From NCBI GenBank assembly GCA_964560005.1, contig CAZLKB010000001.1, positions 77,079-141,078 on the forward strand: a stretch of 64,000 nt of DNA, written 5' to 3'. The first letter of the stretch is position 1, and every line of letters starts with the position of its first letter. The DNA comes from an uncultured Gammaproteobacteria bacterium. GTDB lineage: Bacteria; Patescibacteriota; Patescibacteriia; Patescibacteriales; GWC2-42-12. This document shows positions 6,069 through 63,151 of this stretch, in pieces. Both the position numbers and the translations under genes were made by a program. The notes beneath the pieces were generated by a model. It was not told the DNA's origin and did not search any database. It saw only the letters and a list, made by a program, of their open reading frames with translations.

Positions 6069-6155
6069 GTATTTTTTATCTTCAATTATTCTCTGCTTTT
6101 TGTCAATCATCCCGTTATTCCCATTATACCAAAAATTATGCTATTATAATAACAT

Positions 6156-6239
6156 AATGCGAATACTACAAAAAATATCCAAATACTACAAAAAGTAATT
6201 TATTCGTAGTATTCGCATATCATTTGTAGTATTTGGATT
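6156..6239. repeat. Four-box TACTACAAA module
   Basis: Two direct boxes (GCGAATACTACAAA, TCCAAATACTACAAA) are followed by two inverted boxes in the same order. It ends 9 nt before the ATG at 6248. Confidence 0.6.
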
Positions 6240-6247
6240 ATAACTTT

Positions 6248-6568
6248 ATGACTGATGACAAAACAATCTCTCAAACAGGCGCCGATCCGGATATTGAGGA
6301 AAATAAAACCGTTGCCGCCTTATCCTACATCTGGATCCTGTTTTTACTCCCATTAATCCTAAAAAGGGACTCAAAATTCTGCCAATTTCACGCCAAACAG
6401 GGTTTAATTCTCTTTATTCTTAGTTTTATCGCCTGGTTTCCTGTAATCGGCTGGTTAATCGGTTTAGCGATCTTGGTCGTCTCGGTAATTGGCATTATTA
6501 AAGCCTTGTCCGGAGAGCGATGGGAAATCCCTTTTATTTACGATTTGAGCAAAAAAATTAATTTATAA
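6248..6568 (+). CDS. Small membrane protein (DUF4870-like)
   Basis: AALSYIWILFLLPLIL..FHAKQGLILF pattern. Start moved from TTG (6233) to the ATG at 6248. Confidence 0.55.
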   Translation: MTDDKTISQTGADPDIEENKTVAALSYIWILFLLPLILKRDSKFCQFHAKQGLILFILSFIAWFPVIGWLIGLAILVVSVIGIIKALSGERWEIPFIYDLSKKINL

Positions 6569-6570
6569 AC

Positions 6571-6690
6571 CCCACAAATCAACAAATCAGCTACAAATAT
6601 TACAAATTTAATTTGCAGCATTAGTGTTTATTTACCGTATTTGCGTTTTATTTATTTGTATTATTAGTAGCCAATTCGTAGATTTGTGGG
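6571..6690. repeat. Long low-complexity inverted repeat (ACAAAT theme)
   Basis: CCCACAAATCAACAAATCAGCTACAAATATTACAAAT pairs with ATTTGTATTATTAGTAGCCAATTCGTAGATTTGTGGG. Confidence 0.6.
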
Positions 6691-6709
6691 ATATTAATAT
6701 TTTAAACTT

Positions 6710-10589: not shown

Positions 10590-10632
10590 AAAAATCCAGC
10601 CTAAATTAAAAAATTGAAGCTGGATTTTTGTT
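10590..10632 (+). terminator. Rho-independent terminator
   Basis: AAATCCAGC..GCTGGATTT followed by TTTGTT. Confidence 0.6.
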
Positions 10633-10694
10633 ATAAAGAAGACATAATATGCATATGGCTGGCTGAAATTAAAAATTTCCTCTTTTAAAAAACT

Positions 10695-10841
10695 TACCGG
10701 TTAAGCTGCTAGTTTTAAGCGCATGCAAAATCGTAGCAATTTTTTTTCTTAAAATTATCATTAAATAATTAAAATGAGAAAATTTTAAGAAAAAAATGCC
10801 CAGATTTTGTCTAAGTGAAAAACTAGCATCTTAACCGGGTA
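10695..10841 (+). repeat. Structured element, type B, copy B1
   Basis: Unique arms TACCGGTTAAGCTGCTAG / CTAGCATCTTAACCGGGTA enclose the core TTTTAAGCGCATGCAAAATCG..CAGATTTTGTCTAAGTGAAAAA. Confidence 0.7.
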
Positions 10842-10851
10842 CCAACCCTAA

Positions 10852-11895
10852 TCACATCCTCGCCACCAGCAAATTCAGCCCGGTAAGATAATCGCCTCGG
10901 CCCGACTTAACCAGATAGTCAATCTTTACCAATTGGCTAAAAATATTTTTTAGAGTTGCCAAATTAAAATTATTAGCCTGCGCCAGGCCTTTTTGTAAAA
11001 CAAAAGGGTGTAACTTAAGCTGATTGGCAATCTGGCGCTGGCTTAAGCCTAAATCCACCGCCTGCCTGATAGAAAGTAGTATTCTAAATTGCCTGATAAA
11101 CATATTTAATAGATAATGGCCGTCTAAACCGGACTCAACCAACTCTTCTAACAATTTTATAGCCAAGGCTCTGTTTTTTACGCTGATCGCATCGGTTAAG
11201 GAAAAAATGTTGTCGCTGAAATTTCCCCGTACTAAATTTTTTATATCGGATATATCAATTTCCACCGGCGATTCGGTTAACTTAGCCGTTGCCTTAAAGC
11301 TAATTAATTTATCTAGCTCGTTGCTTATCTGCCAGCCGTCCGAGCCCACCAAGCCAACCAGTAATTCGGCCGCCTTAAGGCTGATTTTACCGCCGCGTGA
11401 AACCACTTCTTTCTTCACCCAACCGGCTAATTCAGTATTGCTTAATAAATTGAAACTGCGGTAAGAATATTTTTGTTCGGCCAAAAATTTTAATAACCCG
11501 GACTGAACTTTGTTCAGCGGCTTATCTCGTCCGTCGGCGTCTATTAAAAACGGCAAAAAAACATTTTTTACTTTCTTCTCCCTGATGTTTGATTCCCAAA
11601 AAATAATAATATTATCCCCGTCCTTCTGGTTTTTATTTTTTAAATAATCCGATAATCTTTCAAGAATTTTCGCGTCTTTGTTGGCGAAAATATCTTCAAT
11701 TATAATTAAGCGCTTTTTAGAAAGCAGCGAGGCCGGACTAATGGCTTCGGCGATCTGAGAGAAAGTCGACTTGGCGCCGGCTAAAACTTTTAGCCCGCTG
11801 CCTGATTTATCTATTTCCCTGAGGTATTTTTCCTTAAGCTCGTTTAATTTTAAGCGGCTTCTAAAATTATCCTCGCCGTAAAGCAATATAATCAT
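10852..11895 (-). CDS. holA: DNA polymerase III subunit delta
   Basis: 347 aa, HolA-like N-terminus MIILLYGEDNFRSRLKLNELKEKY. Confidence 0.7.
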   Translation of the reverse strand: MIILLYGEDNFRSRLKLNELKEKYLREIDKSGSGLKVLAGAKSTFSQIAEAISPASLLSKKRLIIIEDIFANKDAKILERLSDYLKNKNQKDGDNIIIFWESNIREKKVKNVFLPFLIDADGRDKPLNKVQSGLLKFLAEQKYSYRSFNLLSNTELAGWVKKEVVSRGGKISLKAAELLVGLVGSDGWQISNELDKLISFKATAKLTESPVEIDISDIKNLVRGNFSDNIFSLTDAISVKNRALAIKLLEELVESGLDGHYLLNMFIRQFRILLSIRQAVDLGLSQRQIANQLKLHPFVLQKGLAQANNFNLATLKNIFSQLVKIDYLVKSGRGDYLTGLNLLVARM

Positions 11896-11944
11896 AAATC
11901 TTGTTAAAATACTAAAATTTTGTTAAACTTAAATTAGTATAGGA

Positions 11945-12118
11945 GCCGGGTGAAGTAGTTCATTTTGAGAGGCTCCTCGGTGCTTCTCTCGATGCCGAAA
12001 CAGCTAAACTGGGGCGAAATTGTAGTAATTTTTTGGAATTATCCGATCTGTGTTTGTCGGATAATTCCAAAAAATACCCAAATTTCGTCTAAGCGAAAAA
12101 TAAACTACTTCACCCGGC
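11945..12118 (+). repeat. Structured element, type B, copy B2
   Basis: Arms GCCGGGTGAAGTAGTTCA / TAAACTACTTCACCCGGC. Core TTTTGAGAGGCTCC..internal hairpin GGAATTATCCGA..TCGGATAATTCC..AAATTTCGTCTAAGCGAAAAA. Confidence 0.7.
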
Positions 12119-12165
12119 GAAAATATCATCTGTAAATTAATCTAATAACTATCAAAGTTCCATCT

Positions 12166-12339
12166 ATGCAAACCACCCAATGCCCGATCTGCTCAAGCGA
12201 CATTATTATTGAAGAAGGATCGGCGGAAAAAGATCTGGTCACCTGCTTAAACTGCGGTGTGGAGTTGGAAATCGTCACCCTGCACCCCCTGCTCTTAGAA
12301 CCGCTGGAAGAATCAACTGACGAAAAAAATATTGAATAA
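12166..12339 (+). CDS. Small zinc-ribbon protein (LysW-like), 57 aa
   Basis: Below the track size cutoff. MQTTQCPICSSDIIIEEGSAEKDLVTCLNCGVELEIVTLHPLLLEPLEE.. has two CxxC pairs. A terminator follows. Confidence 0.5.
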   Translation: MQTTQCPICSSDIIIEEGSAEKDLVTCLNCGVELEIVTLHPLLLEPLEESTDEKNIE

Positions 12340-12372
12340 AACCTAAATTTATAACTTTTGACGGTAGCCCCT

Positions 12373-12404
12373 AACAAAGCCGTAATGGCTTTGTTTTATT
12401 TTTA
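12373..12404 (+). terminator. Rho-independent terminator
   Basis: AACAAAGCC-GTAAT-GGCTTTGTT followed by TTATTTTT. Confidence 0.55.
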
Positions 12405-12483
12405 CCCTGTTAAATACGATTTGAGCCTATTTTATTGATCTTAAAATATAAGTATAGTACATACAAGTTAAAAAAATTTAAAA

Positions 12484-13830
12484 TTATTTAACAGGGTGAA
12501 CCCTCCTAACTTCCCTTTTAAATAAATTGCCTCTTTCTTTATAATTCTTAAACATACCAAAGCTGGCGCAGGCTGTGGATAATAATACAATATCACCCCT
12601 ACTGGCATTTTCTTTAGCGGTCCTCACGGCATCAACGATATTATCCACTATCTTCATTCTGTCTTTCTTAAACCCAATTTTTAATAGATCTTTTTTTATC
12701 CTTGATGTTGAATCGCCAGCCAGCAAGACAACAAATTTAACTCTATTCACAACCTCTTTAGCCAATTCCTTAAAATCCGCCCCCTTATCGGCTCCGCCCA
12801 GGAATAAAACTATGGGTTGGGTAAACGATTTTAAAGCGATAATGGTTGACTCCGGCGTGGTGGCGAAGCTATCATCATAATATTCAACGCCGTTCAACTC
12901 GCGTACCAATTCCAAGCGATGAGGCAAACCTTTAAAATTAGCCACTGCCTTTTCTATAAACTCCTGTTTTACGCCGATAATTTTCGCCACCTCAATCGCC
13001 GCCGCGACATTTTCCTTATTATGCTCGCCTACCAATTTTGACGGTAATTCTGACTTTTTAAAATACACAATCTTGGCTTTTGTATTTAATTCGTAATCCC
13101 TAATTCCTAATTCATAATTCAAAACCGCCTTTTCTCCGCTCTTTTGGTATTTCACAATATTCATTTTCGCTCCTCGGTATTCTTTTAATGTCCTGTGGTA
13201 ATTCGGATTATTCGGATCGGCCGGCGCTAAATGTTCGGGGTACAAATTAGTGATCACCGCAATCCGCGGGCTCGCCGTCATATCCTCAAGCTGAAAAGAT
13301 GATAACTCTAAGACTACCCAGTCGCTTTTTTTAATTTTATCAATAAAGGCGAACGGCGCCACGCCAATATTACCACCCAGCCAAACTTTTTTGCCGGCTC
13401 GTTTCAATATTTCATAAATCAAACTCGCGGTCGTACCCTTGCCCTTGGTTCCGGTGACGCCGATAATATTTTTAGTCGGGCAAAGATCAAAAAACAATTT
13501 TATAGGACTGGATAATATTGTGCCAGCTTTGATGGTTTGTTTAACGCCCGGGCAATCCATCGGCCAACCCGGAGAACGAAACAAAATATCAAATTTTTCC
13601 AAGCCTTGGTTAAATTTTTTACCTAGCTGCCAAAGAATATATGTCTCTATCATTGCGGGCTCGACCCGCAATCCAGCATTTTCTGTTTTCATCTTCACGC
13701 CCGTTCGCGCGTCGCAAACCGTTATCTCGCATTTCACTTTGTGCTTTAATAAATATCTAACCAAGGCTTGATTCTCAATACCCAGCCCTAAAATTCCAAT
13801 TTTTTTATTATTTAAATTATATAAATTCAT
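12484..13830 (-). CDS. murD: UDP-N-acetylmuramoylalanine--D-glutamate ligase
   Basis: 448 aa. N-terminal Rossmann GILGLGIENQA and P-loop GVTGTKGKGTT, with Mur ligase middle and C-terminal domains. Confidence 0.9.
   Translation of the reverse strand: MNLYNLNNKKIGILGLGIENQALVRYLLKHKVKCEITVCDARTGVKMKTENAGLRVEPAMIETYILWQLGKKFNQGLEKFDILFRSPGWPMDCPGVKQTIKAGTILSSPIKLFFDLCPTKNIIGVTGTKGKGTTASLIYEILKRAGKKVWLGGNIGVAPFAFIDKIKKSDWVVLELSSFQLEDMTASPRIAVITNLYPEHLAPADPNNPNYHRTLKEYRGAKMNIVKYQKSGEKAVLNYELGIRDYELNTKAKIVYFKKSELPSKLVGEHNKENVAAAIEVAKIIGVKQEFIEKAVANFKGLPHRLELVRELNGVEYYDDSFATTPESTIIALKSFTQPIVLFLGGADKGADFKELAKEVVNRVKFVVLLAGDSTSRIKKDLLKIGFKKDRMKIVDNIVDAVRTAKENASRGDIVLLSTACASFGMFKNYKERGNLFKREVRRVHPVK
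13646..13676 (-). repeat. GC-rich hairpin repeat copy inside the murD ORF (in frame)
   Basis: Sense strand GGATTGCGGGTCGAGCCCGCAATGATAG encodes GLRVEPAMI. It is near-identical to the intergenic copy at 29804-29829. Confidence 0.65.
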
Positions 13831-13851
13831 AAATTAAAATTTAGCAGTTAG

Positions 13852-13999
13852 CTAAAACTAATTATTTTTGAAGTGAGGACTGTTCGAGCCACCGCCAGTT
13901 CATAATATTCACACCAAAACAAAGCGTAAAAAGGGATAAATAATCTTTAAATAGCTTTCTGAAAGCGAGTGCCGCAACGAGAAAATAATTAGTTTTAGT
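13852..13999 (+). repeat. Structured element, type A, copy A1
   Basis: Arms CTAAAACTAATTATT / AATAATTAGTTTTAG. Core TTTGAAGTGAGGACTGTTCGAGCCACCGCC..GCGAGTGCCGCAACGAGAAAA. The right arm covers the polA stop codon. Confidence 0.7.
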
Positions 14000-16817
14000 T
14001 AACTGCAATATTCTCCATCTCCCCCCAATTATCCCCCTGCTTGGCGTCAACCACAATCGGCACTTTTAATTTTATAACATCTTCCATAATCTTTTTAATC
14101 TTTTCTGATACTTCGACAACCAAACCATCTTTGACCTCAAACACTAACTCATCATGCACCTGCAGCAACATCCGCACTGGCGCAATTTCTGATCCGCGTT
14201 CCTTCGCGTATAATTCGCTTATCATTCGTGCTACCCTGATCATGGCTATCTTAATTATATCGGCCGCTGTTCCTTGAAGCGGCGTATTGATCGCCATTCG
14301 TTCGGCTGATTTGCGCGCCTGGATGGCCGAAGAGTCAATCTCGGGTAGAAATCTTCTCCGGCCGAACAGAGTTTCAGTATAGCCCTTGGTCCTGGCTAAC
14401 GCAATAGTTTCATCAACAAATTCTTTTACGCCGCTATAGGCGATAAAATATTTTTCTATAAAATCTTTAGCCCGAGCATAAGGAATCTCCGCGCCTTGCG
14501 ATAGCCCGTGCGGCCCTTGGCCGTATAAAATGCCGAAATTAACCGCTTTGGCTTCCCTCCTTAATTCCGGAGTCACTTCTTCTGGTTTGATTTGATTAAT
14601 CTCCGCGGCGGTGGCTGTGTGAATATCTTCGCCCTGCTTAAAAGCGGTAATCAGTTTCTTATCGCCCGACATATGAGCCGCTAACCGCAGCTCTATCTGG
14701 GAATAATCAAGCGATAATAATTTATAACCCTGATCGGCCACGAACGCCCGCCTGATCCTCTTGCCCAATTCAGTCCTAATCGGAATATTCTGTAAATTCG
14801 GTTCGGTTGATGACAACCGCCCGGTAGCGGTTACGGCCTGATTAAAACTGGTATGCAACCGACCGGTTTTTAGATTAACCAGCTTTGGTAGAGACTCTAT
14901 GTAGGTCGTTGATAGTTTTGTCAGCTCGCGGTAGTCCTGGATTAAATCAATAATCGGATGCTGGCCTTTAAGCTTGGCTAACTCATCGGCCCCGGTAGAT
15001 AAGCCGGTTTTACCCTTGCTAATGCCAAGAGCCGGAATAGCCAATTTTTCAAACAAAATTTCGCGGAGTTGCTGGGTGGAATTTATGTTAAAATCCGAGC
15101 CGGCTAAATCATGAATCTTTTTTTCCAGCAAATGTATTTTTTTATCAACTTCGCGGCCGATATCGGCTAAAAATTCTTTATCAATTTTTATGCCGTTTAT
15201 TTCCATGACGGTTAGCACTAAAACCAAAGGCATTTCAATTTCGTAAAATAATTTATCAATCTTTTGTTTTTTTAATTCCGGCACTAATTTTTTTATTAAA
15301 CGATTGGTGAAGTCCGCGTCCTCGCAGGAATAATTATATAGTTTTTCCACCGCTACCTGGCTAAAACTGATTTTATCTTTGCCTCTGCCCAGTAAATCCT
15401 CTTTGGTAATTTTTTGATGATTAAAATAATTAAAAGTTACGGCATCTAAATTATGCTGGCGGCTGCCCGGATTAAGGAGGTACGAAGCTACCATGGAATC
15501 GGCCGCTACGCCTCTTACTATAACGCCTTGGCTGGCCATCACCTCAAGATCATATTTAATATTGTGCCCATACTTTTTTATTTTCTCATTCTCCATTATC
15601 GGCTTCAGCCTCTCCAGCCAAGCGTTACCGGCTTTTTTCTTATTCTGATAATCAAACAAATTACTTCTTGCTTCTGACTTCTTACTTCTAACTTCCAAAT
15701 AATAGGCTTCACCCGCCTGCCAGGAAAAACTTATACCTAAGAGCTCGGTATTGATCGGATCAAAATTCGCCGTTTCAGTGTCAAAGGTAAATTCCTTTTG
15801 CTTAGCCAGGGCTTTGAAAAAACTATTGAATTTTTTTTCACTATCCACCAGCTGGTAAGCAAATGATTCTAGATTTCTTTTGAATTTATCCTCTGCTTCA
15901 TAGTCTGGTTTTTTCTCTAAAGACTTTTTGGCGTCTTGCGCTAGGCCTTGCAGCCTGGGCAGGAGAGACTTGAAGTCCAGTTCATTAAACAGTTTTCCTA
16001 ATTTTTCCTGATCAAATTGGCCGAAACGCGCGTTTTTCAAATCAAAGTCAATTTCAGCATCGCGTTTTATAGTCGCTAAATCCTTACTCATGTAAGCATT
16101 GTCTTTATATTGAATTAGCAGTTCACGAATGCGATCTCTAATCTTGCCGGATTTAATGTTCAGGTAGACATTATCCAAAGTCTTAAAAGCTTGCAGCAGT
16201 TCAATCGCCGTCTTTTCGCCGATGCCCTTAACTCCGGGAATATTATCCGAAGGGTCGCCGCGCAAGGCTTTAAAATCAATCATCTGCCCGGGCTCAAGCC
16301 CGTATCTTTGCTTGACCGCCTTTTCGTCGTATATCATGGAGTCGGTTAAGCCGCGCTTCATGGTATAGACCTTGGTATGACCGTTAATCAACTGCAGAGT
16401 GTCCATATCGCCGGTAACAATAATTTTTTCAACCGCGCCGTCAACCAGACTGGCTAAAGTGCCGATTAGATCATCGGCTTCAAATCCGGCCAATTCAAAA
16501 ATCGGAATATTAAAGCCTCTGGCGATTTCCTTAACGCGGGGAATTTGCGCATACAATTCATCCGGCGCCTTGACTCTGGTGGCTTTATAGCCGGCGAATT
16601 GCTTATGGCGAAATGTCTTTTCCTTTCTATCTAAAGTTAAAACCACATATTCCGGTTTAAACTCGCGCAAAGCCTTTATTAGAACCGAGGTAAAGCCATA
16701 AACCGCGTTTATAATTTCGCCGGTCTTAGTGGTTAAGGGCGGCAAAGCGTGAAAACTCCGATGGATCAGCGCATTGCCGTCAATAATCATTAATGTTTCT
16801 TTTTGTTGTTTACTCAT
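13995..16817 (-). CDS. polA: DNA polymerase I
   Basis: 940 aa with 5'-3' exonuclease, 3'-5' exonuclease-like and family A polymerase domains (RRxAKxxNFGxxYG, QVHDELVFE). Confidence 0.95.
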   Translation of the reverse strand: MSKQQKETLMIIDGNALIHRSFHALPPLTTKTGEIINAVYGFTSVLIKALREFKPEYVVLTLDRKEKTFRHKQFAGYKATRVKAPDELYAQIPRVKEIARGFNIPIFELAGFEADDLIGTLASLVDGAVEKIIVTGDMDTLQLINGHTKVYTMKRGLTDSMIYDEKAVKQRYGLEPGQMIDFKALRGDPSDNIPGVKGIGEKTAIELLQAFKTLDNVYLNIKSGKIRDRIRELLIQYKDNAYMSKDLATIKRDAEIDFDLKNARFGQFDQEKLGKLFNELDFKSLLPRLQGLAQDAKKSLEKKPDYEAEDKFKRNLESFAYQLVDSEKKFNSFFKALAKQKEFTFDTETANFDPINTELLGISFSWQAGEAYYLEVRSKKSEARSNLFDYQNKKKAGNAWLERLKPIMENEKIKKYGHNIKYDLEVMASQGVIVRGVAADSMVASYLLNPGSRQHNLDAVTFNYFNHQKITKEDLLGRGKDKISFSQVAVEKLYNYSCEDADFTNRLIKKLVPELKKQKIDKLFYEIEMPLVLVLTVMEINGIKIDKEFLADIGREVDKKIHLLEKKIHDLAGSDFNINSTQQLREILFEKLAIPALGISKGKTGLSTGADELAKLKGQHPIIDLIQDYRELTKLSTTYIESLPKLVNLKTGRLHTSFNQAVTATGRLSSTEPNLQNIPIRTELGKRIRRAFVADQGYKLLSLDYSQIELRLAAHMSGDKKLITAFKQGEDIHTATAAEINQIKPEEVTPELRREAKAVNFGILYGQGPHGLSQGAEIPYARAKDFIEKYFIAYSGVKEFVDETIALARTKGYTETLFGRRRFLPEIDSSAIQARKSAERMAINTPLQGTAADIIKIAMIRVARMISELYAKERGSEIAPVRMLLQVHDELVFEVKDGLVVEVSEKIKKIMEDVIKLKVPIVVDAKQGDNWGEMENIAVN

Positions 16818-24568: not shown

Positions 24569-24699
24569 AATAAATAATGAAAAATGTAAAAATCAAAGTT
24601 CAAAGTGACAATTTAAAAATGTAAAATGCTTTAATTTAAAATTTTTTAATTTTTAATTTTGCATTGTCATTTTCCATTTTGATTTTTTAATTTTTAACT
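24569..24699. repeat. AT-rich low-complexity inverted-repeat spacer (AAAATGTAAAAT / TGTCATTTT theme)
   Basis: Fills the whole rpmI-rplT gap. The right half TTTGCATTGTCATTTTCCATTTTGAT is shared with 33340-33444 and 63815-63955. Confidence 0.55.
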
Positions 24700-24897: not shown

Positions 24898-24929
24898 ACG
24901 CACATAAAATTAAATTGTCTTATAAATTT

Positions 24930-25025
24930 CCCACAAATATACAAATCGGATACAAATACAACGAATTCTTATTTAATAATCTTTACTAATTTGTATTATT
25001 CGTAGCTAATTCGTTGATTTGTGGG
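24930..25025. repeat. Long low-complexity inverted repeat (ACAAAT theme)
   Basis: CCCACAAATATACAAATCGGATACAAATAC pairs with ATTTGTATTATTCGTAGCTAATTCGTTGATTTGTGGG. It lies between infC and rpmI. Confidence 0.6.
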
Positions 25026-25093
25026 TTTTTTAATAAAAAACAGGTTAAAATACCTGATTTTCGCCTGCCTGTCCGGTAGGCAGGTATTTCCGA

Positions 25094-26747: not shown

Positions 26748-26833
26748 TGGTGGCTCAGGTGGGAGTCGAACCCACATGCCCATAGGACGCAACATTTTAA
26801 GTGTTGTGCGTATACCAGTTCCGCCACTGAGCC
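26748..26833 (-). tRNA. tRNA-Leu(TAA)
   Basis: Acceptor GGCTCAG/CTGAGCC, loop CTTAAAA, long variable arm, CCA encoded. Confidence 0.9.
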
Positions 26834-26836
26834 ATT

Positions 26837-27307
26837 CTATTTTTTACGATTTCTGCCGCGATGCGTTGGTTTTAAACTATGGCAATTGGGACAAAGGATT
26901 CTTAAATTTTCTATTCTATTGTCGCGACTATCGCCATTTATATGATCGAGCTCTAACGGCAAACGCCCATCTGGTGAAACCCTTGCCCAACCACATTCTT
27001 CGCATCTAGGCAATTTTAATTTCTCTTTATATAATCTTTTCTTTAACTTATAGCTTTGAAAATTACTACCTTTGACCAATATTTTATCTAATGCAATTCT
27101 CGGGCTGCTAAAACCTGTTAATCCTTTGTTCCAGCCACGCCCTTTAAGATGGCTCGTATTTATTTTGAAAATAACCAAATATTTTTTTATTTGATTGTAA
27201 TTTCCACCAGCTAGTTTAAGCCCAAGTAATTTTAATACTTGTCTAACGCTGGTTGATTTTTTAACCGCTTCTTTTAACTGCCGTTCGGTCCAACTTTTTG
27301 TTCTCAT
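26837..27307 (-). CDS. HNH endonuclease
   Basis: C-terminal LELDHINGDSRDNRIENLRILCPNCH. Start moved from TTG to the ATG at 27307. The stop lies 3 nt before the tRNA-Leu(TAA) 5' end. Confidence 0.8.
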   Translation of the reverse strand: MRTKSWTERQLKEAVKKSTSVRQVLKLLGLKLAGGNYNQIKKYLVIFKINTSHLKGRGWNKGLTGFSSPRIALDKILVKGSNFQSYKLKKRLYKEKLKLPRCEECGWARVSPDGRLPLELDHINGDSRDNRIENLRILCPNCHSLKPTHRGRNRKK

Positions 27308-27390
27308 ATATAATATTATATCATAATGGTAATGATATAACAATATACATACTAATACGTATACCTGTTCTATCTTTTCAATAAGTCGAG

Positions 27391-27770
27391 TGGAGATGAG
27401 GGGAATTGAACCCCTGTCTAATAAACTTCTTAAAGCATATTTACAGATTAGATCGATTTGTTTTCTCGCTACCGCCGTAAAAACCGAACAAAATCGGCCG
27501 TAGCAGAGCTTATTTTTTAAGATAACCGATAAAGCGATCGATTATTCGAGCCTATGATTTTACACTCGTATCCGGCGTATAGGCGTCAGCCGGGCGAATG
27601 GTTGCGGCTATTAAGCGGCAACAGGGGCAAAGGCCGGCATTTTCCAAGAAAATGTCGCTTTGCTCAATAAGTTTTTGACACTTATTATTTTCGAGCGCGA
27701 TTAAAGTGACGGCTCGAGACGCACTCCTGAATGCTTTAAAAAAATTTTATTATCGATGCCTAGCATCCCC
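27391..27770 (-). ncRNA. ssrA: tmRNA (SsrA)
   Basis: The 5' GGGGATG pairs with the 3' CATCTCC (G3:U70). T-arm AGGGG-TTCAATT-CCCCT. The internal tag frame ends ..PAFAPVAA then TAA TAG (27608-27658). smpB is adjacent. Confidence 0.85.
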
Positions 27771-27916: not shown

Positions 27917-28378
27917 TTACCGTTTTGTTAAGGTTCTTATTTGGCGGTCTAACTCTCTCTTTTTAATAACCCCTCTCTTGTCGTATTTCTTCCGCCCTTT
28001 GCCTATGCCGAATTCCAGCTTAATAAAACTATGCTTAGTATATATTTTTATGGGAACTAATGTCAAGCCTTGTTCGTCTTTTTTCCCCATCAGATAACCG
28101 ATTTCTTTCTTTTTTAAAAGCAATTTTCTGGAACGCAATGGGTCGTAGCCGGGGCGGTCGCCGGCAAACTTGTACAGAGGTATATGCGCATTAATCAAAT
28201 AAGCTTCGGGCAAGTTTTTTCCTCTCATCTTTTTGAAAGTCACATAACTGCCCTTTAGGCTTACATGCCCGGTTTTAATTGACTTTACTTCATAACCCAA
28301 TAGTACCAAGCCGGCTTCATAAGTTTCTTGGATGTCATAATCAAAATTCGCGCGTTTATTATAGGCCAGAGTGGGCAT
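27917..28378 (-). CDS. smpB: SsrA-binding protein
   Basis: 153 aa. NKRANFDYDIQETYEAGLVLLGYEVKSIK. Confidence 0.95.
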   Translation of the reverse strand: MPTLAYNKRANFDYDIQETYEAGLVLLGYEVKSIKTGHVSLKGSYVTFKKMRGKNLPEAYLINAHIPLYKFAGDRPGYDPLRSRKLLLKKKEIGYLMGKKDEQGLTLVPIKIYTKHSFIKLEFGIGKGRKKYDKRGVIKKRELDRQIRTLTKR

Positions 28379-31077: not shown

Positions 31078-31132
31078 TGGATTCCCGCCTTCCCTCGGCA
31101 GGCTCGGGACAGGTCGCGGGAATGACAAAAAA
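31078..31132 (+). repeat. GC-rich hairpin repeat, long form (GGATTCCCGCC..GCGGGAATGACAAAAAA)
   Basis: Ends 10 nt before the 5' arm of element A2. Confidence 0.55.
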
Positions 31133-31142
31133 GTACAGTAAG

Positions 31143-31304
31143 CAGTGGGGTGAAATATGTTATTTTTTGAAACGAGGATTGTTTGAGCCACCACCAATTA
31201 ATGCAATTCACACCTAATAGTCTTTATAGCCACTGACAGTTTTATTTAAGCTAACATCTGGCGAGTGCCGCAGTGAAAAAAATTACATATTTCACCCCAC
31301 TGCC
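31143..31304 (+). repeat. Structured element, type A, copy A2
   Basis: Arms GCAGTGGGGTGAAATATGTTA / ATTACATATTTCACCCCACTGC. Core TTTTTTGAAACGAGGATTGTTTGAGCCACCACC..GGCGAGTGCCGCAGTGAAAAAA. Confidence 0.7.
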
Positions 31305-31315
31305 TTTTATATTTA

Positions 31316-33339: not shown

Positions 33340-33444
33340 ATATAATGTAAAATTTAAAAATCAAAATGCAAAATGACAGTTTAAAATGTAAAATTAATAA
33401 TTTTTAATTTTGCATTGTCATTTTACATTTTGAGATTTACATTT
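33340..33444. repeat. AT-rich low-complexity inverted-repeat spacer (AAAATGTAAAAT theme)
   Basis: AATCAAAATGCAAAATGACAG versus TTTGCATTGTCATTTTACATTTTGAG. It fills the hppA-nusA gap. Confidence 0.55.
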
Positions 33445-34887
33445 TTAACTTTTCTTCTTGCTCTTTTTTTTCTTACCCTCAACCGCCAGTTCAGTCTTAG
33501 CTTCCGCCGGACTAACCGCGGTTTCTGCCTTCACTTCTTTTTCAACTTCCGCTTCCGGTTTTATCTCAGCCGCCTTTTCGGCCTCGACTACGGGTTCTTC
33601 TGTCTTCACTTCCGCCTTAGGCGCTTCTTCCGCTTTCACTACCGTACCCTTTTCTCCGACAATATCCAATTTCCAGCCGGTTAAGCGCGCCGCCAGCCTG
33701 ACATTCTGCCCTTCTCGGCCGATGGCTAAAGATAGCTGGTCTTCCACCACTTTTACCATTGCCCTCTTCTCTTCATTATTGAGCTCAACGCCAATAACTT
33801 TAGCCGGCGCTAAGGCCTGAGCGATAAATTTGGCGATATCTTCATTATATTCAATAATATCGATTTTTTCCCCGCCCAGCTCGCTGATGATGGTCTGAAT
33901 TCTCGCCCCTCTCTGCCCTACGCAGGAACCGATCGGGTCGACATTTTCCCCGACCGCGAAAACCGCTACTTTGGAACGATTACCTGCCTCGCGCGCCACG
34001 GCCTTTATTTCCACCAGCCCGTTGGAGATTTCCGGAATTTCCAGATAAAATACTTTTTTTAATATTTCATCCGAAGTTCTGGATAAAATAATTTCCGGGC
34101 CGCGGGAGGTCGTGCCGACATATTTTACGTAAACTTTTATCCGATCGCCCGGGCGGTATCTTTCATTCATAATTTGCTCTTCGGCCGGTAAAACGCCGAC
34201 CGCCTTGCCCAAATCAACTAAAACTATCCGGCCTTCGCGTCGCTGAACCACGCCGGCCACTACTTCATTCTCCTTATCTTTAAATTCGCTAAAAATCATC
34301 TCCCTCTCGGCTTCTCTTAATTTCTGAATGATAACCTGCTTGGCGGTTTGCGCGGCCATGCGGCCGTATTCCGCCGGCGGACTTAACTTGGTTTTTATCA
34401 CATCGCCGACCTTGGCCGTCTTTTTAATTAAAACAGCATCTTTAATTTGCAACTCGGTCTTAGGGTTGAATTTCCTCGCCTCTTCCACTGGCACTTCGCC
34501 CGATCCAATTTCAGCCACGGCCGCAACTTTAGCTCCGTTCTCGGGCATTACCTTAGTTTCTAATTTTTCTTCCTTAATTTTTAATTTTGAATTTTTAATT
34601 TTTAATTTTTCTTCGCCATCATCTCCAGTTATCGGCTTTAGACTACCCTCAGTTTTCACCTCTTCCGTCTCTTCTATTTCTGGCATATCCTCTACCACGG
34701 TTTTAACGTCAAAAACTTTGGATTTAGCCGTTTCCGGATCAAATTCTACCTTAATGTTCTGGTTTTTTTCGCCGAAATCTTTTCGGTAAGCCGCGGCCAA
34801 AGCCGACTCAATGGTTTCTAAAACCGCCTGATAGCTTAAATTTTTCTCTTCACAAATTTGCTTAATAGCATTAGTTATATCAGACAT
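33445..34887 (-). CDS. nusA: Transcription termination/antitermination factor NusA with acidic/lysine-rich C-terminal tail
   Basis: S1 plus two KH domains (GVVQRREGRIVLVDLG, GSCVGQRGARIQ, AIGREGQNVRLAARLTGW). Start moved from TTG to the ATG at 34887. Confidence 0.9.
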   Translation of the reverse strand: MSDITNAIKQICEEKNLSYQAVLETIESALAAAYRKDFGEKNQNIKVEFDPETAKSKVFDVKTVVEDMPEIEETEEVKTEGSLKPITGDDGEEKLKIKNSKLKIKEEKLETKVMPENGAKVAAVAEIGSGEVPVEEARKFNPKTELQIKDAVLIKKTAKVGDVIKTKLSPPAEYGRMAAQTAKQVIIQKLREAEREMIFSEFKDKENEVVAGVVQRREGRIVLVDLGKAVGVLPAEEQIMNERYRPGDRIKVYVKYVGTTSRGPEIILSRTSDEILKKVFYLEIPEISNGLVEIKAVAREAGNRSKVAVFAVGENVDPIGSCVGQRGARIQTIISELGGEKIDIIEYNEDIAKFIAQALAPAKVIGVELNNEEKRAMVKVVEDQLSLAIGREGQNVRLAARLTGWKLDIVGEKGTVVKAEEAPKAEVKTEEPVVEAEKAAEIKPEAEVEKEVKAETAVSPAEAKTELAVEGKKKKSKKKS

Positions 34888-34930
34888 ATTGTTTTGATAA
34901 TTTATTAATTTATTACTCAACTTATTATAT

Positions 34931-35008
34931 AATCCAAATACTACAAAAATTATCCGAATATTACAAATACTTTTTGTAGTATTTGAATAATTTTTGTAGT
35001 ATTCGCAT
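34931..35008. repeat. Four-box TACTACAAA module
   Basis: TCCAAATACTAC, CCGAATATTAC, GTAGTATTTGA, GTAGTATTCGC. It lies 44 nt upstream of the nusA ATG. Confidence 0.6.
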
Positions 35009-35165
35009 TATACTAAAGAAAAAGGCTAGTTTGAATTTAATCAACTAGCCTTAGTATCTATATACTAGCATTATATAATATAGAAGTCAACAATTTTTTT
35101 CCCCCTTAATAAAAGGGAATGAAGGGAGATTTATGCCTTCTAATTCAAGTTAAAATAAAATATAT

Positions 35166-36005: not shown

Positions 36006-36148
36006 GGCAATCGGGGGAAAATTTGTTTTGAGCGCATACAAAATTGTATTATTTTTTCTTAAAATTATCCAGACCAATTTAATAAAATTTTAAGAAAAAA
36101 TACACAAATTTTGTCGTAAGCGAAAAACAATTTTTTCCACCGATTGTC
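36006..36148 (+). repeat. Structured element, type B, copy B3
   Basis: Arms GGCAATCGGGGGAAAATTTG / CAATTTTTTCCACCGATTGTC. Core TTTTGAGCGCATACAAAATTGTA..ACAAATTTTGTCGTAAGCGAAAAA. Confidence 0.7.
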
Positions 36149-36154
36149 GTCTTA

Positions 36155-37180
36155 TTATGGAATAATCCGTAGATTTGTGGGGCCGACTGCCAACTGCCCG
36201 CAAGCCGCCTTGATATCTTGACCGAACCTATATCTTTCGGTCACATCAATCTTTTGATCCCTTAAAGTTTTCTTAAAATCGAAAATTCTCTTGGCCGGCG
36301 ACGGTTGAAATTCAGCTGTTGGATTATAGGCGATTAAATTTACGAAGAATAACGGCGGGTCTATCTTCTTGAGCAACATCGCTAATTCTAAGGCTTGTTC
36401 CTCGGAATCGTTAAAGCCGTCAATCATTAAATATTCAATCATCGCGCGGCGGCCGGTTTGTTCTAAATAATTATTCAATTCCGCCATTACTTCATCCAGC
36501 GGATATTTTTTATTTGCCGGAATTATTTGGGCGCGCAATTCGTCCGACGGCGCGTGCAGGGATAAAGCCAAATTGATTTGCATTTTTTCCTTGGCCATTT
36601 TTTTTATACCGCTGGTCACGCCAATGGTTGAAATGGAAATATGGCGCGCGCCGATATTTAAACCGTCTTTGTCATTAAGCATCCTAATAGCCGCCAGGAC
36701 ATTTTCGTAGTTTAAAAACGGCTCGCCCATGCCCATAAAAACGATATTGGTAACACGACTGTCTTTCTTTTTCAAAGCTCGGGCAAAAAACAAAACCTGC
36801 TCAACGATCTCGGCTACTGTCAAATTTCTCTTAAAACCCATCTTGCCGGTGGCGCAGAATAAACAGCCCAGCGGACAACCAACCTGCGAAGAAACGCAAA
36901 CCGTATTGCGGCCATCCGCATGATTTAACAAAACCGTTTCAATTTTTAAACCGTCGGCTAAATATATTAAAGCCTTAACCGAATCAGCTTCTTTACTCTT
37001 AACAATTTCGGCTTCAATCGCTAAAGAAGATTTTTGATTTAATTGCTCTCTTAGCGCCAAAGGCATAATAGTCGCTTGATTCCAGTCATCTATCAAATCA
37101 ATAAAAATCGCGCGCTTAGCCTGTTTCAGCCTAAACTTGGGTTCATCTTTCAACAGGTATTCTAATTTTTCTAAATTCAT
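36155..37180 (-). CDS. rlmN: 23S rRNA/tRNA (adenine-C2)-methyltransferase, radical SAM
   Basis: CVSSQVGCPLGCLFCATG and GMGEPFLNY. Start moved from TTG (37228, inside element B4) to the ATG at 37180. Confidence 0.9.
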   Translation of the reverse strand: MNLEKLEYLLKDEPKFRLKQAKRAIFIDLIDDWNQATIMPLALREQLNQKSSLAIEAEIVKSKEADSVKALIYLADGLKIETVLLNHADGRNTVCVSSQVGCPLGCLFCATGKMGFKRNLTVAEIVEQVLFFARALKKKDSRVTNIVFMGMGEPFLNYENVLAAIRMLNDKDGLNIGARHISISTIGVTSGIKKMAKEKMQINLALSLHAPSDELRAQIIPANKKYPLDEVMAELNNYLEQTGRRAMIEYLMIDGFNDSEEQALELAMLLKKIDPPLFFVNLIAYNPTAEFQPSPAKRIFDFKKTLRDQKIDVTERYRFGQDIKAACGQLAVGPTNLRIIP

Positions 37181-37193
37181 ATTTTTACTAGTT

Positions 37194-37339
37194 GGCATGG
37201 GGAGGGCGGGCATTTTAAGTGAATACAAAATTGTATTATTTTTTTATTAAAATTGCTCATAATATAAATATATAGACAATTTTAATAAAAAAATACTCAA
37301 ATTTTGTCCTGAACGAAAAATGCCCGCCCTTCCCATGCC
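37194..37339 (+). repeat. Structured element, type B, copy B4
   Basis: Arms GGCATGGGGAGGGCGGGCA / TGCCCGCCCTTCCCATGCC. Core TTTTAAGTGAATACAAAATTGTA..CAAATTTTGTCCTGAACGAAAAA. An orphan 3' core follows at 37340-37364. Confidence 0.7.
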
Positions 37340-37385
37340 AAATTTCGTCTTAAGCGAGAAAAAGACCTATTTGTCCCGCAACGGT

Positions 37386-39984: not shown

Positions 39985-40167
39985 AAGGGAGTCTAAAATA
40001 TTTAATTTTTGAAGTGAGGACTGTTTGAGCCCCCACCATTTTTTCTCCTTATGGCCCAAACTATTAGAAATTTCAATTTTTTATATTTATTTTACTTTTA
40101 CATGAGTACTTAAAAAATGGTGTGGGCGAGTTCCGCAACGAAAAAATTAATTATTTTAGACTCCCTT
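39985..40167 (+). repeat. Structured element, type A, copy A3
   Basis: Arms AAGGGAGTCTAAAATATTTAA / TTAATTATTTTAGACTCCCTT. Core TTTTTGAAGTGAGGACTGTTTGAGCCCCCACC..GGTGTGGGCGAGTTCCGCAACGAAAAAA. Confidence 0.7.
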
Positions 40168-47765: not shown

Positions 47766-47820
47766 AGGTTGAAAAGTTAATTTACATTTATTATAAATTG
47801 TGCTAATTGCAGAGGTAAAG

Positions 47821-47916
47821 TTTTGGCTAAATTTATTTATTTTTGAAGCGAGGACTGACCGGCCGGCACATAATGAATTTGATCCGCAGCGAAAAAATAA
47901 ATGAATTTAGCCAAAA
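47821..47916 (+). repeat. Structured element, type A, minimal copy A4
   Basis: Arms TTTTGGCTAAATTTATTTAT / ATAAATGAATTTAGCCAAAA. Core TTTTGAAGCGAGGACTGACCGGCCGGCAC..GATCCGCAGCGAAAAAA. Confidence 0.7.
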
Positions 47917-47961
47917 CTATAATCATCAGCTAACACAATCCATATTTATATTATACCATTA

Positions 47962-55577: not shown

Positions 55578-55827
55578 AATATTTGTCTTCCTTAACAAAA
55601 ATTAAATAAAATATGAATATACCTGAATAAAAATTTTTATACTTTCATTTTACCACTTTCCCCAAATTAGTTCTAACCTCCCATTCCCCTATAGAAAAAC
55701 TGCCCTTACGTGAGGGCAGTTTTTTATTGGGTCGCGTAGTGGAGGATATCGGAACTATTTTAAAGAATACCACTATTAATATCGACATTCCAGATTTAAT
55801 TAAAATAAAATAAATTTAACCATAACA

Positions 55828-56775
55828 AACAGTTAGGTGATATAAAGGATATGGAACAAATTTAGTATAATTAAATTGTGAAGCAATTTAATTATAACTA
55901 TAATTTGCATCCATATGCTCAAATTAAAATTAGATTTTAACGACCGGCAGCTGCAAACTAAATTACGAAAGATTGTTTTTAAAAATGGCCGGTTAAAATG
56001 CCCCCGTTGCGGTTCGTTCATAATTAGGAAGGTTAAATCGGAGAAAAGATATTACTGCAAACGCTGCCGTAAAAAGTTTTCTGCTTTGTCATCCAGCTGG
56101 CTGAAAAATATCAAAATACCTTTGTCTCAATTTACTGTTTTATTACAGCTCTGGTTGAAAGGTTACGGTGTGGCTGAAGCCAATGAACTGACTAAGGTAT
56201 CAGTGCCAACTATTAGGAAATATTACAGTTTGTTTAGGTTAAATATCGTAAAATCCATTGATTTTAAAGCAGAAAACAACGTTCAGGTCGACGAAGCCTA
56301 TTTCGGCAGGTTTCGCAAAGACGGAAACATCTATCATAGCTGGAGGACTTATCATTCACCACCCAAGACCTGCGTCGCCGGCATCGGTTGCCCGGTTAAC
56401 GGGCAATTAGCTACCAGGGTGATAGAAGGAACCAAGGGAGAAAAGATCAGGCGGTTTATTCGTGAACAGGTTCCAACCAACATCCATGTTTATTCTGACG
56501 GCAGTTATATCTATACCAATCTGCGCCAGGACTATCATCACACTTCGCAAACCCATGATCTGGGATTTGAAAACGCCTATTACATCGAATCTTGCTGGTC
56601 CTGGATGAAAAGAAAACTGTTTAAACAATACCACCATTTCCACAAAAAGAATGCCGTAGATTATGTGTCAGAATTGACCTGGCGATTTAACACAAGAAAA
56701 ATGCAGAAAAATGCCTTAGATTATTTACAAAAATCACTTTGACTGTTCCACATCCTTTACATGACCCAAACAGTT
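55828..56775 (+). mobile_element. IS1595-family insertion sequence
   Basis: Imperfect terminal inverted repeats: AACAGTTAGGTGATATAAAGGATATGGAACA (55828-55858) versus the rc of 56744-56775, AACTGTTTGGGTCATGTAAAGGATGTGGAACA. One transposase ORF lies between them. Confidence 0.65.
55915..56742 (+). CDS. IS1595-family transposase
   Basis: N-terminal zinc ribbon CPRCGS..CKRCRKKF and DDE region VQVDEAYFG..VYSDGSYIY..ESCWSWMKR. Confidence 0.8.
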   Translation: MLKLKLDFNDRQLQTKLRKIVFKNGRLKCPRCGSFIIRKVKSEKRYYCKRCRKKFSALSSSWLKNIKIPLSQFTVLLQLWLKGYGVAEANELTKVSVPTIRKYYSLFRLNIVKSIDFKAENNVQVDEAYFGRFRKDGNIYHSWRTYHSPPKTCVAGIGCPVNGQLATRVIEGTKGEKIRRFIREQVPTNIHVYSDGSYIYTNLRQDYHHTSQTHDLGFENAYYIESCWSWMKRKLFKQYHHFHKKNAVDYVSELTWRFNTRKMQKNALDYLQKSL

Positions 56776-60266: not shown

Positions 60267-60818
60267 TTAAAAACTTTTTTTCTCATACTTCCATTCTATA
60301 ACATCATTATTTTTTAATTTATAATATGACACGCCGACTTGAGCCGGTTGGCCGTTAACATAATATAGCCAATTTTTACCGGCCGGGTCATTCTTAACGC
60401 CATTAATTTCTTCAATGAAAAACCCCAGTCTGGAATAATCACGACTCTTAAAATCAATTTTATTCTGCTCTTTTAACAACCGCATTAAATCATAGACCGT
60501 GCTATCCGGGGAAACTTGCGCTTCATATTTAACTCCGCTGATTGCTAGATTGGCTAAAATTTTCTTGTTCGGCTCGGACGCCGGAGCTTTGGCTTGGTCC
60601 TGATTTAGCGCTCGTTCATTTTCTTGAGCCGCCTGCTCAGCCGATTTAGTAATGATTTTAGCCTGATTAAGCGCATTTGCTAAACCGCCGGGCGCGTCAT
60701 TACCGGCCAAGGACATTAAACCTACTTCACTGTTTGTCAAATGCTTCACGGTTGAAACGCCAACCCAGGCTAATAGCAGAAAAACTAAAAAAAATATGGC
60801 TAAATTTTTTACTTTCAT
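60267..60818 (-). CDS. Membrane-anchored DUF4430-domain protein (transcobalamin beta-domain-like)
   Basis: C-terminal TVYDLMRLL..GFFIEEINGVKNDPAGKNWLYYVNGQPAQVGVSYYKLKNNDVIEWKY. Start taken at the ATG at 60818. The upstream ATG at 60836 lies inside a repeat. Confidence 0.7.
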   Translation of the reverse strand: MKVKNLAIFFLVFLLLAWVGVSTVKHLTNSEVGLMSLAGNDAPGGLANALNQAKIITKSAEQAAQENERALNQDQAKAPASEPNKKILANLAISGVKYEAQVSPDSTVYDLMRLLKEQNKIDFKSRDYSRLGFFIEEINGVKNDPAGKNWLYYVNGQPAQVGVSYYKLKNNDVIEWKYEKKSF

Positions 60819-60831
60819 ATAATCTATCGCC

Positions 60832-60856
60832 GTCATCCCCGCGAAAGCGGGGATCC
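60832..60856 (-). repeat. GC-rich hairpin repeat, short form (GGATCCCCGCTTTCGCGGGGATGAC)
   Basis: 7-bp stem TCCCCGC/GCGGGGA. Overlaps the longer track ORF start. Confidence 0.55.
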
Positions 60857-60960
60857 AGAAATGCTTAATTACGAAAAACCCGCCCTGCTTCGAGCGGATC
60901 CGATAAATTTAACATTATTAAATTTATTTTCTTTGCTCGAAGAATAACTATATAAGTTAG

Positions 60961-61052
60961 TTATCAGCGTTCTGGCTTGTTCCCCCACCATCTTGGTGAA
61001 GGACATTACAGTTGCGGCACAGCGCCGGGTTTACACCGGACTTTCCTGATAA
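60961..61052 (-). promoter_or_regulatory. Cobalamin riboswitch-like aptamer (compact form)
   Basis: Minus strand: P1 TTATCAG/CTGATAA. Core GGAAAGTCCGGTGTAAACCCGGCGCTGTGCCGCAACTGTAA and B12-box-like AAGCCAGAACGCTG. Confidence 0.7.
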
Positions 61053-61068
61053 CTATTGTTGTTTCTAT

Positions 61069-61096
61069 ATTATATAACTTTTGTAGAAAGAGTCAA
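61069..61096 (-). promoter_or_regulatory. Canonical sigma70-type promoter for the riboswitch operon
   Basis: On the minus strand: TTGACT (rc 61091-61096), 16 nt, TATAAT (rc 61069-61074). The predicted start is about 10 nt before P1. Confidence 0.5.
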
Positions 61097-63050: not shown

Positions 63051-63056
63051 CAATAT

Positions 63057-63143: not shown

Positions 63144-63151
63144 TATAATAT

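Follow-up and report, generated by a model that had tools for sequence, protein, structure and literature searches.

The DNA analysed here, called the window throughout, is the whole 64,000-nucleotide (64-kb) stretch taken from contig CAZLKB010000001.1 of the Patescibacteria assembly GCA_964560005.1. It contains five copies (B1 to B5) of a long hairpin element, type B, which are confined to spacers between genes and occur about once per 13 kb. Copies of the family nearly fill their spacers, which separate unrelated housekeeping genes; the neighbours are rpsT, holA, a LysW-like gene, murD, rlmN, a DUF5661 gene, a Gmad2/Germane gene, an XerC/D-like recombinase gene, rpsO and an NYN-domain gene. 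From the outside inwards the hairpin consists of a closing stem (P1), a conserved inner stem (P2) and a variable distal stem (P3). The five copies are listed below with the z score of their fold against dinucleotide shuffles and the score of a covariance model built from the family.

10695-10841 (+): B1, full type B element; P1 arms 10697-10716 and 10819-10838, long AT-rich P3; spacer of the convergent genes rpsT (S20) and holA; fold -56.9 kcal/mol, z -9.7; 99.5 bits
11945-12118 (+): B2, full type B element of a variant subfamily with a GC-rich module in the 5' internal loop; spacer of the divergent genes holA and the LysW-like zinc-ribbon gene; fold -85.8 kcal/mol, z -10.85; 77.5 bits
11945-11966 (+): B2, 5' arm of P1, GCCGGGTGAAGTAGTTCA plus TTTT; pairs with 12097-12118 with one mismatch
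11967-12013 (+): B2, 5' loop region, GAG followed by the GC-rich module of about 44 nt (AGGCTCCTCGGTGCTTCTCTCGATGCC...), in the place of the usual CGCATAC
12014-12088 (+): B2, P2, GCGAAATT (12014-12021) paired with AAATTTCG(T) (12080-12088) and enclosing the P3 hairpin
12087-12118 (+): B2, 3' core GTCTAAGCGAAAAA, then the 3' arm of P1, TAAACTACTTCACCCGGC
36006-36148 (+): B3, full type B element between rlmN and the DUF5661 gene, antisense to both; z -9.9; 91.7 bits
37192-37341 (+): B4, full type B element, P1 GC-rich and 25 bp long, between the Gmad2/Germane gene and rlmN, antisense to both; z -13.0; 101.7 bits
37340-37379 (+): solo 3' half of a further type B copy, AAATTTCGTCTTAAGCGAGAAAAA with arm GACCTATTTGTCCCGC, abutting B4
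62349-62488 (+): B5, full type B element of the GC-module variant, between the XerC/D-like recombinase gene and rpsO (S15); P1 nearest to the family consensus; z -7.45; 80.4 bits

Each of the five copies folds into a single long hairpin (z from -7.45 to -13.0) and none of the shuffles is as stable. Run with filters off over the whole window, the covariance model gives exactly five matches, all on the + strand, with scores of 77-102 bits and E values of 1e-17 to 1e-24. A loose pattern of the 3' core is matched five times, while 0.7 matches are expected. The five copies had been listed by the initial annotation, a reading of the letters alone, and both the sequence and the model bear them out at the positions that it gave; only the ends of B4 are refined, to 37192-37341, and the solo 3' half next to it had been overlooked. 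The open reading frame (ORF) of rlmN as mechanically called (36155-37228) begins at a TTG within the 5' arm of B4, while its homologues start at MNLEKLEY (37180). Annotation pipelines may thus over-extend genes into type B hairpins.

The family was described from an alignment of 62 distinct copies, in which L-numbers such as L084 are the labels of loci from other genomes and metagenomes. The consensus reads GCCGGACAAAGATnTTnG-TTTT-GAGCGCATACGAAATTGTAGnATTTTTT...AAAAAATACCCAAATTTCGTCTAAGCGAAAAA-CnAAnATCTTTGTCCGGC. The element is a rod-shaped hairpin of about 89-180 nt. P1 is a stem of 20-28 bp (median 23) that is free of mismatches in 44 of the 62 copies and whose end position varies. It is followed by a strongly conserved non-Watson-Crick zone consisting of UUUU against AAAA, a tandem G.A/A.G, a G-Y pair and a C-G pair, which closes with a 4x4/5 loop of GCAU against CU(U)AA. 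The conserved P2 of 7-8 bp (ACRAAAUU against AAUUUYGU) then leads to P3, an AT-rich stem that is dispensable, since the minimal 89-nt copy L110:997-1085 lacks P3 and keeps P1. Both P3 and the internal loops can carry extra hairpin modules, and the long forms have such additions. A GC-rich module occupies the 5' loop of B2, B5 and L084:1753-1901; L005 has one in either loop, and a module related to that of B2 is present in inverted orientation in L051 near 7019. Some P3 modules end in C(UUCG)G-like loops.

Much of this anatomy had been anticipated. The 5' core TTTT(G/A)AG(C/T)G and the 3' core AAATTTYGTC.TAAGYGAAAAA are as first described, the U4/A4 pairs and the tandem R.A/A.G mismatches are both found in the copies, and the G-Y pair is indeed followed by a C-G pair that is U-A in B4 alone (pair 68-184: CG 59, UA 1). 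The AT-rich inner hairpin and the GC-rich insert of B2 and B5 are likewise present. The statement that the outer arms are unrelated between copies, on the other hand, went too far, as the 62-copy alignment yields a common arm consensus, GCCGGACAAAGATnTTnG / CnAAnATCTTTGTCCGGC. B5 matches it almost exactly, B1 and B2 match it in part and B3 and B4 have drifted furthest. The arms are thus a part of the element that evolves fast and with compensation, and not foreign sequence.

The fold of type B is under purifying selection. RNAalifold predicts 39 pairs from the 62 copies, 30 of them with changes on both sides. In a 37-pair structure, 96.9% of the 2,293 pair cells are standard, compared with 40-59% for controls in which one partner was slid against the other by 1-3 columns; 30 of the 37 pairs are compensated, 414 cells are changed on both sides and the observed value is reached by none of 500 shuffles. 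The outer stem is the least conserved part of the element, and 20 of 21 pairs of P1 are changed on both sides. P2 covaries at three positions (G-C/A-U in a ratio of 43:19, C-G/U-A and U-A/C-G), and A-U in L016 and U-A in B4 bear out the 2-bp helix beyond the tandem G.A. P1 needs only to pair, and the whole hairpin with its arms is the unit.

Type B is a previously uncatalogued family of dispersed hairpin repeats in Parcubacteria-group Patescibacteria. The window itself is assigned to a bacterium of this group by a Logan assembly of SRR12133404 and by protein neighbours that bear the labels Patescibacteria, Parcubacteria or Falkowbacteria. Scanning one genome per species with the 3' core gave 68 matches, about the number expected by chance, of which 12 are true copies. 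These lie in five Patescibacteria metagenome-assembled genomes: E14_maxbin.173, E14_metabat.bin.105, Falkowbacteria RIFCSPLOWO2_12_FULL_45_13, STF1_148 and Parcubacteria GW2011_GWC2_42_12. A scan of metagenomes, including those of JGI, with the 5' core added 58 further loci, and the covariance model recognizes about 75 distinct copies in 560 kb of loci (74 sequence sources, namely the window and 73 loci). The proposal of the initial annotation, a structured family whose conserved core is closed by a variable, compensating helix, is thus upheld: a model made from the copies finds homologues outside this genome, in several genomes, and the pairing statistics lie far above the slid and shuffled controls. 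A scan of the whole window at the Rfam 15 gathering thresholds gave no match on any type B element, nor on any member of a second hairpin family, type A, that is listed further on; an Rfam scan by E value of 10600-14100 returned only generic miRNA-hairpin matches, at 21-24 bits compared with gathering scores of 91-195. No type B match was obtained in IMG/VR (exact-pattern scans) or in phage and plasmid collections (blastn). The searchable literature on repeats or structured RNAs of the candidate phyla radiation (CPR)/Patescibacteria holds no earlier description of type B, and the clade goes unmentioned in 2026 preprints on the mining of intergenic regions. In genome JAUSEG01 the orthologue of the B4 site is occupied by a strongly diverged B-like hairpin (L128:3808-3978, -; GCGCGAGCATAGAAAAATTTAGG ... 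CCTAAATTTTTCGTGGCGAGCGA) that scores 29.8 bits, so the family may extend beyond what the present model detects.

The two strands of the element are not equivalent. On the given strand, G.U and U.G pairs outnumber A.C and C.A mismatches by about 3:1. The ratio of G.U to A.C is 33:10 in copies that are antisense to the neighbouring genes and 10:4 in sense copies; at pair 67-185, 35 copies have G-C and 24 (39% of copies) have G.U. The + strand of the window has lagging-strand sequence, with a replication term of about -0.11 when codon-usage and replication skew are separated at third codon positions. Mutation bias linked to replication should favour A.C on this C-rich strand, and the excess of G.U is therefore attributed to selection. 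GC skew on the element strand is negative in 49 of 63 cases. The fold under selection is that of one strand of defined polarity, the + strand in the window. We infer that the active form is a single-stranded nucleic acid and more likely RNA than single-stranded DNA, because of the 39% of G.U at one pair, the tandem sheared-type R.A pairs and the C(UUCG)G-like loops. Moreover, a folded strand with lagging-strand sequence is not the strand that is exposed as the lagging-strand template, so that a reading as single-stranded DNA fits poorly.

The copies are also oriented with respect to genes. Of the 47 copies that lie between co-directional genes, 34 (72%) are antisense and 13 sense. The - strand of the window carries 44 of its 58 ORFs, and the + strand carries all nine elements, five of type B and four of type A. 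The flanks of type B copies are not conserved in the 62-copy alignment. A consensus scanner called no terminator at B1-B4; ordinary terminators do occur in these genomes, for example in L133 and at 55695-55724 of the window. The conserved ATTGTA of the 5' core is TACAAT on the opposite strand, where a -35-like hexamer (TGGATA, or TTGAAT in copies with a long P3) is found 17-18 nt upstream. The candidate outward promoter so formed (36043-36071, -, in the window, and its equivalents) is directed outwards from the element, at its 5' end, to the next gene start; it may be a coincidence. The consensus scanner flags the outward TACAAT site in B3. As a general explanation an outward reverse-strand promoter (TACAAT with TTGAAT or TGGRYA) was rejected: type A, with the same orientation bias, has no such box, and promoter-like sites are no commoner than in shuffles. 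A guide-like element was rejected as well, the P1 arms having no other match in the window at up to three mismatches.

Type B sites are gained and lost between related genomes like those of a repeat, while some persist at orthologous spacers as P1 drifts with compensation. The synteny around holA is kept in L133, L134 and L135 (HolA identities of 81%, 72% and 71%), yet a B element and arms of the window type are missing from the B1 and B2 sites of all three. The place of B1 is taken in L133 by a plain terminator, whose stem bears no relation to the B1 arms, and in L134 and L135 by other palindromes; the one in L134 (4075-4245, -) is a long GC-rich inverted repeat (ATTGTCATTGCGAGGAGGAGCGCAAGCGACGACGCGGCAATCTCT ...) that fills the HolA-S20 spacer, the place of B1 in the window. 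A GC-rich palindrome like that of L134 precedes a half copy in L010. In four genomes the Gmad2-RlmN spacer holds an element of the B family, each time in antisense orientation and with mutually dissimilar P1 arms: B4 in the window, a short form in L111, a 5' half only in L130 and the strongly diverged hairpin in L128. The S15-NYN spacer contains type B in L084 and L115 and a different palindrome in the window, and the site of B5 in the window is empty in L084.

The orthologous copies of L084 and L115 are 68% identical in the P1 arm and about 92% identical in the core. The NYN gene has 64% identity at its third codon positions, and P1 shows six compensated transition pairs between the two copies. 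It follows that P1 drifts at about the neutral (synonymous) rate under the constraint of pairing, whereas the core is held roughly like first codon positions. A second orthologous pair, L098/L120, also has compensated differences, with a short P3 in one and a long P3 in the other. Between copies with only 65-82% identity in their P1 arms, the distal P3 modules reach 94-100%, and on these sequences the modules look like young additions that were spread by nested insertion or gene conversion. The same contrast might suggest that P1 evolves faster than neutral; this was discarded, as in orthologous pairs P1 tracks the synonymous rate and the long P3 module can differ. Besides the one next to B4 (37340-37379), solo halves are found in L010, in L134 (a 3' half at about 1165-1120, -, that immediately follows a type A element) and in L130 (the 5' half).

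We favour, with somewhat better than even confidence, the reading that type B is a dispersed structured repeat of the REP/ERIC kind that acts as a single strand, probably RNA, and whose conserved internal loops are a candidate protein-binding site. The conserved irregular helix would then probably be the docking site of a trans-acting protein and P1 probably a generic long duplex. In origin the element would be mobile or formerly mobile, and its effects on transcripts in cis would be exerted by way of processing, stability or insulation. The RNA motif would be active on the sense strand and hence selected against within operons, which would best explain the shortage of sense copies in gene arrays; alternatively, the elements may be aimed at antisense or head-on transcripts.

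Several observations weigh against this reading. With most copies antisense to their neighbours (34 of 47), the folded strand would be made there only by antisense transcription, which weakens the case for RNA, and a single-stranded DNA form fits poorly as well since the folded strand has lagging-strand sequence in the window. Matches to -10/-35 boxes upstream of the copies equal those in the mirrored flank, so there is no promoter enrichment, and the downstream flanks of 58 copies have no T-run, so that the hairpin is not followed by a U-tract. That copies persist at orthologous sites, with first-codon-like constraint on the core, would agree equally well with a host function that has nothing to do with mobility. 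Mobility itself is read from patterns of presence and absence and from remnants: no target-site duplication is seen, the flanking direct repeats of 60 copies being like those of a shuffled-partner control except for a weak excess of 3-mers (19 observed compared with 10 expected), and no transposase with ends matching type B is present in the window. Its one transposase belongs to an insertion sequence of the IS1595 family (55833-56769; DDE ORF 55915-56742; 26-bp terminal inverted repeats TTAGGTGATATAAAGGATATGGAACA / TGTTCCACATCCTTTACATGACCCAA). IS1595 was rejected as the parent of type B, as the terminal repeats are unrelated. Nor was a partner protein found, with no RAYT/Y1 among the 55 window ORFs scanned against Pfam.

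Two other accounts explain part of the same evidence. The hairpins might be an RNA punctuation domesticated by the host, in which the + strand hairpin terminates, pauses or marks for nucleases those transcripts that run against the main direction of genes and replication; antisense and head-on transcription would so be suppressed in compact AT-rich genomes, and sense copies would mark the ends of operons. A wobble signature that is strand-specific whatever the direction of the host genes would be expected of such a device, as would the antisense position of 34 of the 47 informative copies and the placing of five B and four A elements opposite the majority of 44 of 58 genes, on lagging-strand sequence. 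The orientations of A and B agree in most loci, the core is strongly constrained at orthologous loci, and the same spacers in relatives hold other hairpins or plain terminators. We nevertheless think it unlikely, though worth taking seriously. Without a U-tract classical intrinsic termination is improbable (an intrinsic, Rho-independent terminator was rejected as an identity for the same reason), and the reverse-complement hairpin in sense mRNAs would be almost equally stable. Only weak selection would be expected from spurious antisense transcripts, which is at odds with a core constrained like first codon positions; half copies and nested modules are also not predicted. Distinctly unlikely in our estimate is a selfish, non-autonomous element of single-stranded DNA, its internal loops recognized by an enzyme acting in trans as in REPIN/RAYT or IS200/IS605 and its covariation reflecting competence for transposition. 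The strand rule of IS608-type elements is the opposite of what is found here, where the folded strand has lagging-strand sequence; further, the ends of type B are its least conserved part and lack a target-site duplication, the 64 kb contain no Y1/RAYT or other matching transposase, divergence is compensated at resident orthologous loci, and viral, phage and plasmid collections gave no match. What such an element does explain is the high copy number and purely intergenic location, the turnover of sites between relatives and the truncated copies beside full hairpins, the coexistence of several hairpin families and the way in which subfamilies cut across the orthology of loci (the P3 of B4 is nearest to that of L100, while the orthologous L111 copy is short). 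Compensatory change in REPIN hairpins is documented (PMC3116915). The initial annotation had set aside a MITE, or miniature inverted-repeat transposable element. Type B is indeed no MITE by the classical criteria, but the mobile-repeat behaviour that was dismissed along with it fits the turnover, half copies and nested modules and is therefore not to be dismissed.

The remaining explanations fare worse than the structured repeat that we prefer. Independently transcribed, multi-copy genes for trans-acting small RNAs would share with type B the conserved core with a variable closing stem, the tolerance of G.U on one strand only and an orientation independent of the neighbouring genes. We consider them very improbable, as promoters are not enriched upstream compared with the mirrored flank, no terminator follows and the flanks are not conserved; some 80 paralogues per Mb, as extrapolated from the window, would be unusual for a small RNA, and half copies are common. 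The alternative offered by the initial annotation, a mobile core sitting in the loops of locus-specific hairpins such as terminators, with arms of host sequence, drew on the strong differences between the arms of the five window copies; the plain terminator hairpin of L133 at the B1 site and the extra modules that do sit in B loops could be added in its favour. It is now barely credible. The arms are homologous between copies and have a family-wide consensus, the terminator stem of L133 is unrelated to the B1 arms and the minimal L110 copy retains P1 without P3. None of the three relatives has the window arms as an empty, core-less hairpin at the B1 and B2 sites; they lack both core and arms, which largely refutes insertion into pre-existing hairpins and means that the whole unit was gained or lost. 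A practically negligible chance is left to a box C/D guide RNA related to the stem-loop arrays of TIGR-Tas, with the tandem G.A beside the variable stem as a kink-turn. In TIGR arrays the palindromic stems vary and box C/D motifs are present, and CPR genomes contain TIGR loci (PMC12045711); in type B, too, a tandem sheared-type G.A/A.G lies directly beside a variable palindromic closing stem. However, U4 pairs with A4 in register and leaves no 3-nt bulge, RUGAUGA/CUGA box pairs are absent, the interior is conserved and so provides no variable spacers, the copies are single and dispersed and not in tandem, and no Nop-domain protein is among the 55 Pfam-scanned window ORFs. An identity as kink-turn, box C/D or TIGR element was rejected for want of the bulge, box pair, spacers and array. 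The cores of hammerhead, twister and other self-cleaving ribozymes were rejected too, as the conserved strings do not fit them by eye and Rfam is silent. So was an integron attC site, since conservation is the reverse of that in the R''/R' core sites and the genes on either side, namely holA and rlmN, have housekeeping roles and a conserved synteny. The recombinase gene next to B5, which adjoins rpsO, encodes phage-integrase-family and SAM-like domains in an XerC/D-like architecture.

Type B is not the only family of large hairpins in the window. Type A has a copy-specific closing stem of 22-28 bp and a U-run, followed by GAAGYGAGGACUGUUUGAGCC...GGCGAGUKCCGCARCGAAAAA. Eighteen distinct copies were found in the window and at other loci, including three of the four in the window; their arms fall into homologous subgroups, and the copy at the PolA-MurD spacer has arms in common with L135:1286-1386. 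Further palindromes are built on three other motifs.

13838-14012 (+): type A element
31131-31314 (+): type A element
39985-40167 (+): type A element
47816-47921 (+): type A element
33349-33445, 63823-63945, 24580-24695: AT-rich imperfect palindromes built on AAAATGTAAAAATCAAAATGCAAAATGACA
34928-35012, 6154-6241, 63054-63147: palindromes built on TATAATCCAAATACTACAAAA; the last fills the S15-NYN spacer of the window
6560-6701, 24923-25032, 1638-1740: palindromes built on CCCACAAATCAACAAATC...ACAAAT
60919-61072 (-): AdoCbl riboswitch (Rfam 52.4 bits, gathering threshold 50), upstream of a DUF4430 gene (60267-60836) and adjoining tRNA-Arg
26837-27343 (-): small HNH endonuclease ORF between tRNA-Leu (26748-26833) and the tmRNA gene (27390-27770), which is followed by smpB (27917-28378)

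Types A and B share a design of a long stem that is free to vary, a U-run, a tandem G.A and a conserved irregular core. As a speculation to which we give only a small chance, the two could represent a new class of strand-specific structured elements, either as a genome-wide, orientation-dependent punctuation that, for example, stops or destroys head-on and antisense transcripts, or as hairpins that spread by an undescribed mechanism without terminal repeats or target duplication. The genomes of Patescibacteria are tiny and tightly packed, yet a noticeable share of the 13 kb of intergenic DNA in the window consists of large hairpins of at least two families. The covariation of type B is among the clearest imaginable and its core is first-codon-like in constraint; the family is absent from Rfam 15 and from the searchable literature. 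If it acts as RNA, it would be a new and abundant RNA-protein recognition module in an uncultured radiation in which little is known of transcript processing; if it is mobile DNA, it would be an exception to the usual rule of conserved ends and a free middle. In practice, the covariance model allows annotators to mask or label about 1% of these genomes and accounts for long ORFs that reach into the arms.

Among known systems, organelle-genome hairpin elements and GC clusters resemble type B in a general way. Type B differs from them in its bacterial host, its strongly conserved asymmetric core and its strand-specific wobble signature. What the two share is that several families of nested palindromic modules occupy the AT-rich spacers of a compact genome. 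PMC2800124 is a paper on such organelle elements. RNAs whose closing helix is free, among them P1-closed riboswitch aptamers and the rod-like 4.5S and 6S RNAs, have in common with type B their conserved loops or junctions, covarying helices, G.U on one strand and optional extensions. Type B, in contrast, would occur in dozens of copies per genome (extrapolated from five in 64 kb), is associated neither with a gene class nor with flanking expression signals, has a perfect closing stem of 20-28 bp and frequent half copies, and matches no Rfam model.

The likeness to ERIC/IRU and Correia (NEMIS/CREE) elements lies in the imperfect intergenic palindromes of 100-170 bp, in size variants that arise by internal insertions at fixed points and in a presence that varies between related genomes. 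ERIC and Correia elements exert effects through transcripts or promoters (reviewed in PMC3184786). Defined terminal inverted repeats and TA target duplications belong to them but not to type B, whose outer stem is its fastest-evolving part. Like type B, REP and REPIN sequences are present in high copy number, strictly extragenic and able to form long hairpins as single-stranded DNA or RNA, with compensatory changes (PMC3116915); singlets or half copies occur as remnants, and copies last for long in a lineage. The arrangement is inverted, however: a REPIN has conserved ends and a variable middle and type B a conserved middle and variable ends. Type B is also much larger than REP, has no GTAG/CGTC-type tag, possesses conserved non-Watson-Crick loops and is accompanied by no RAYT in the window. 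Among dispersed structured repeats it stands out by a closing stem that covaries freely around a conserved interior and by its strand-specific signature. Although it is without conserved ends, target duplications and, as far as the window is concerned, an associated transposase, type B is in its behaviour closest to REP/REPIN, ERIC and Correia elements.

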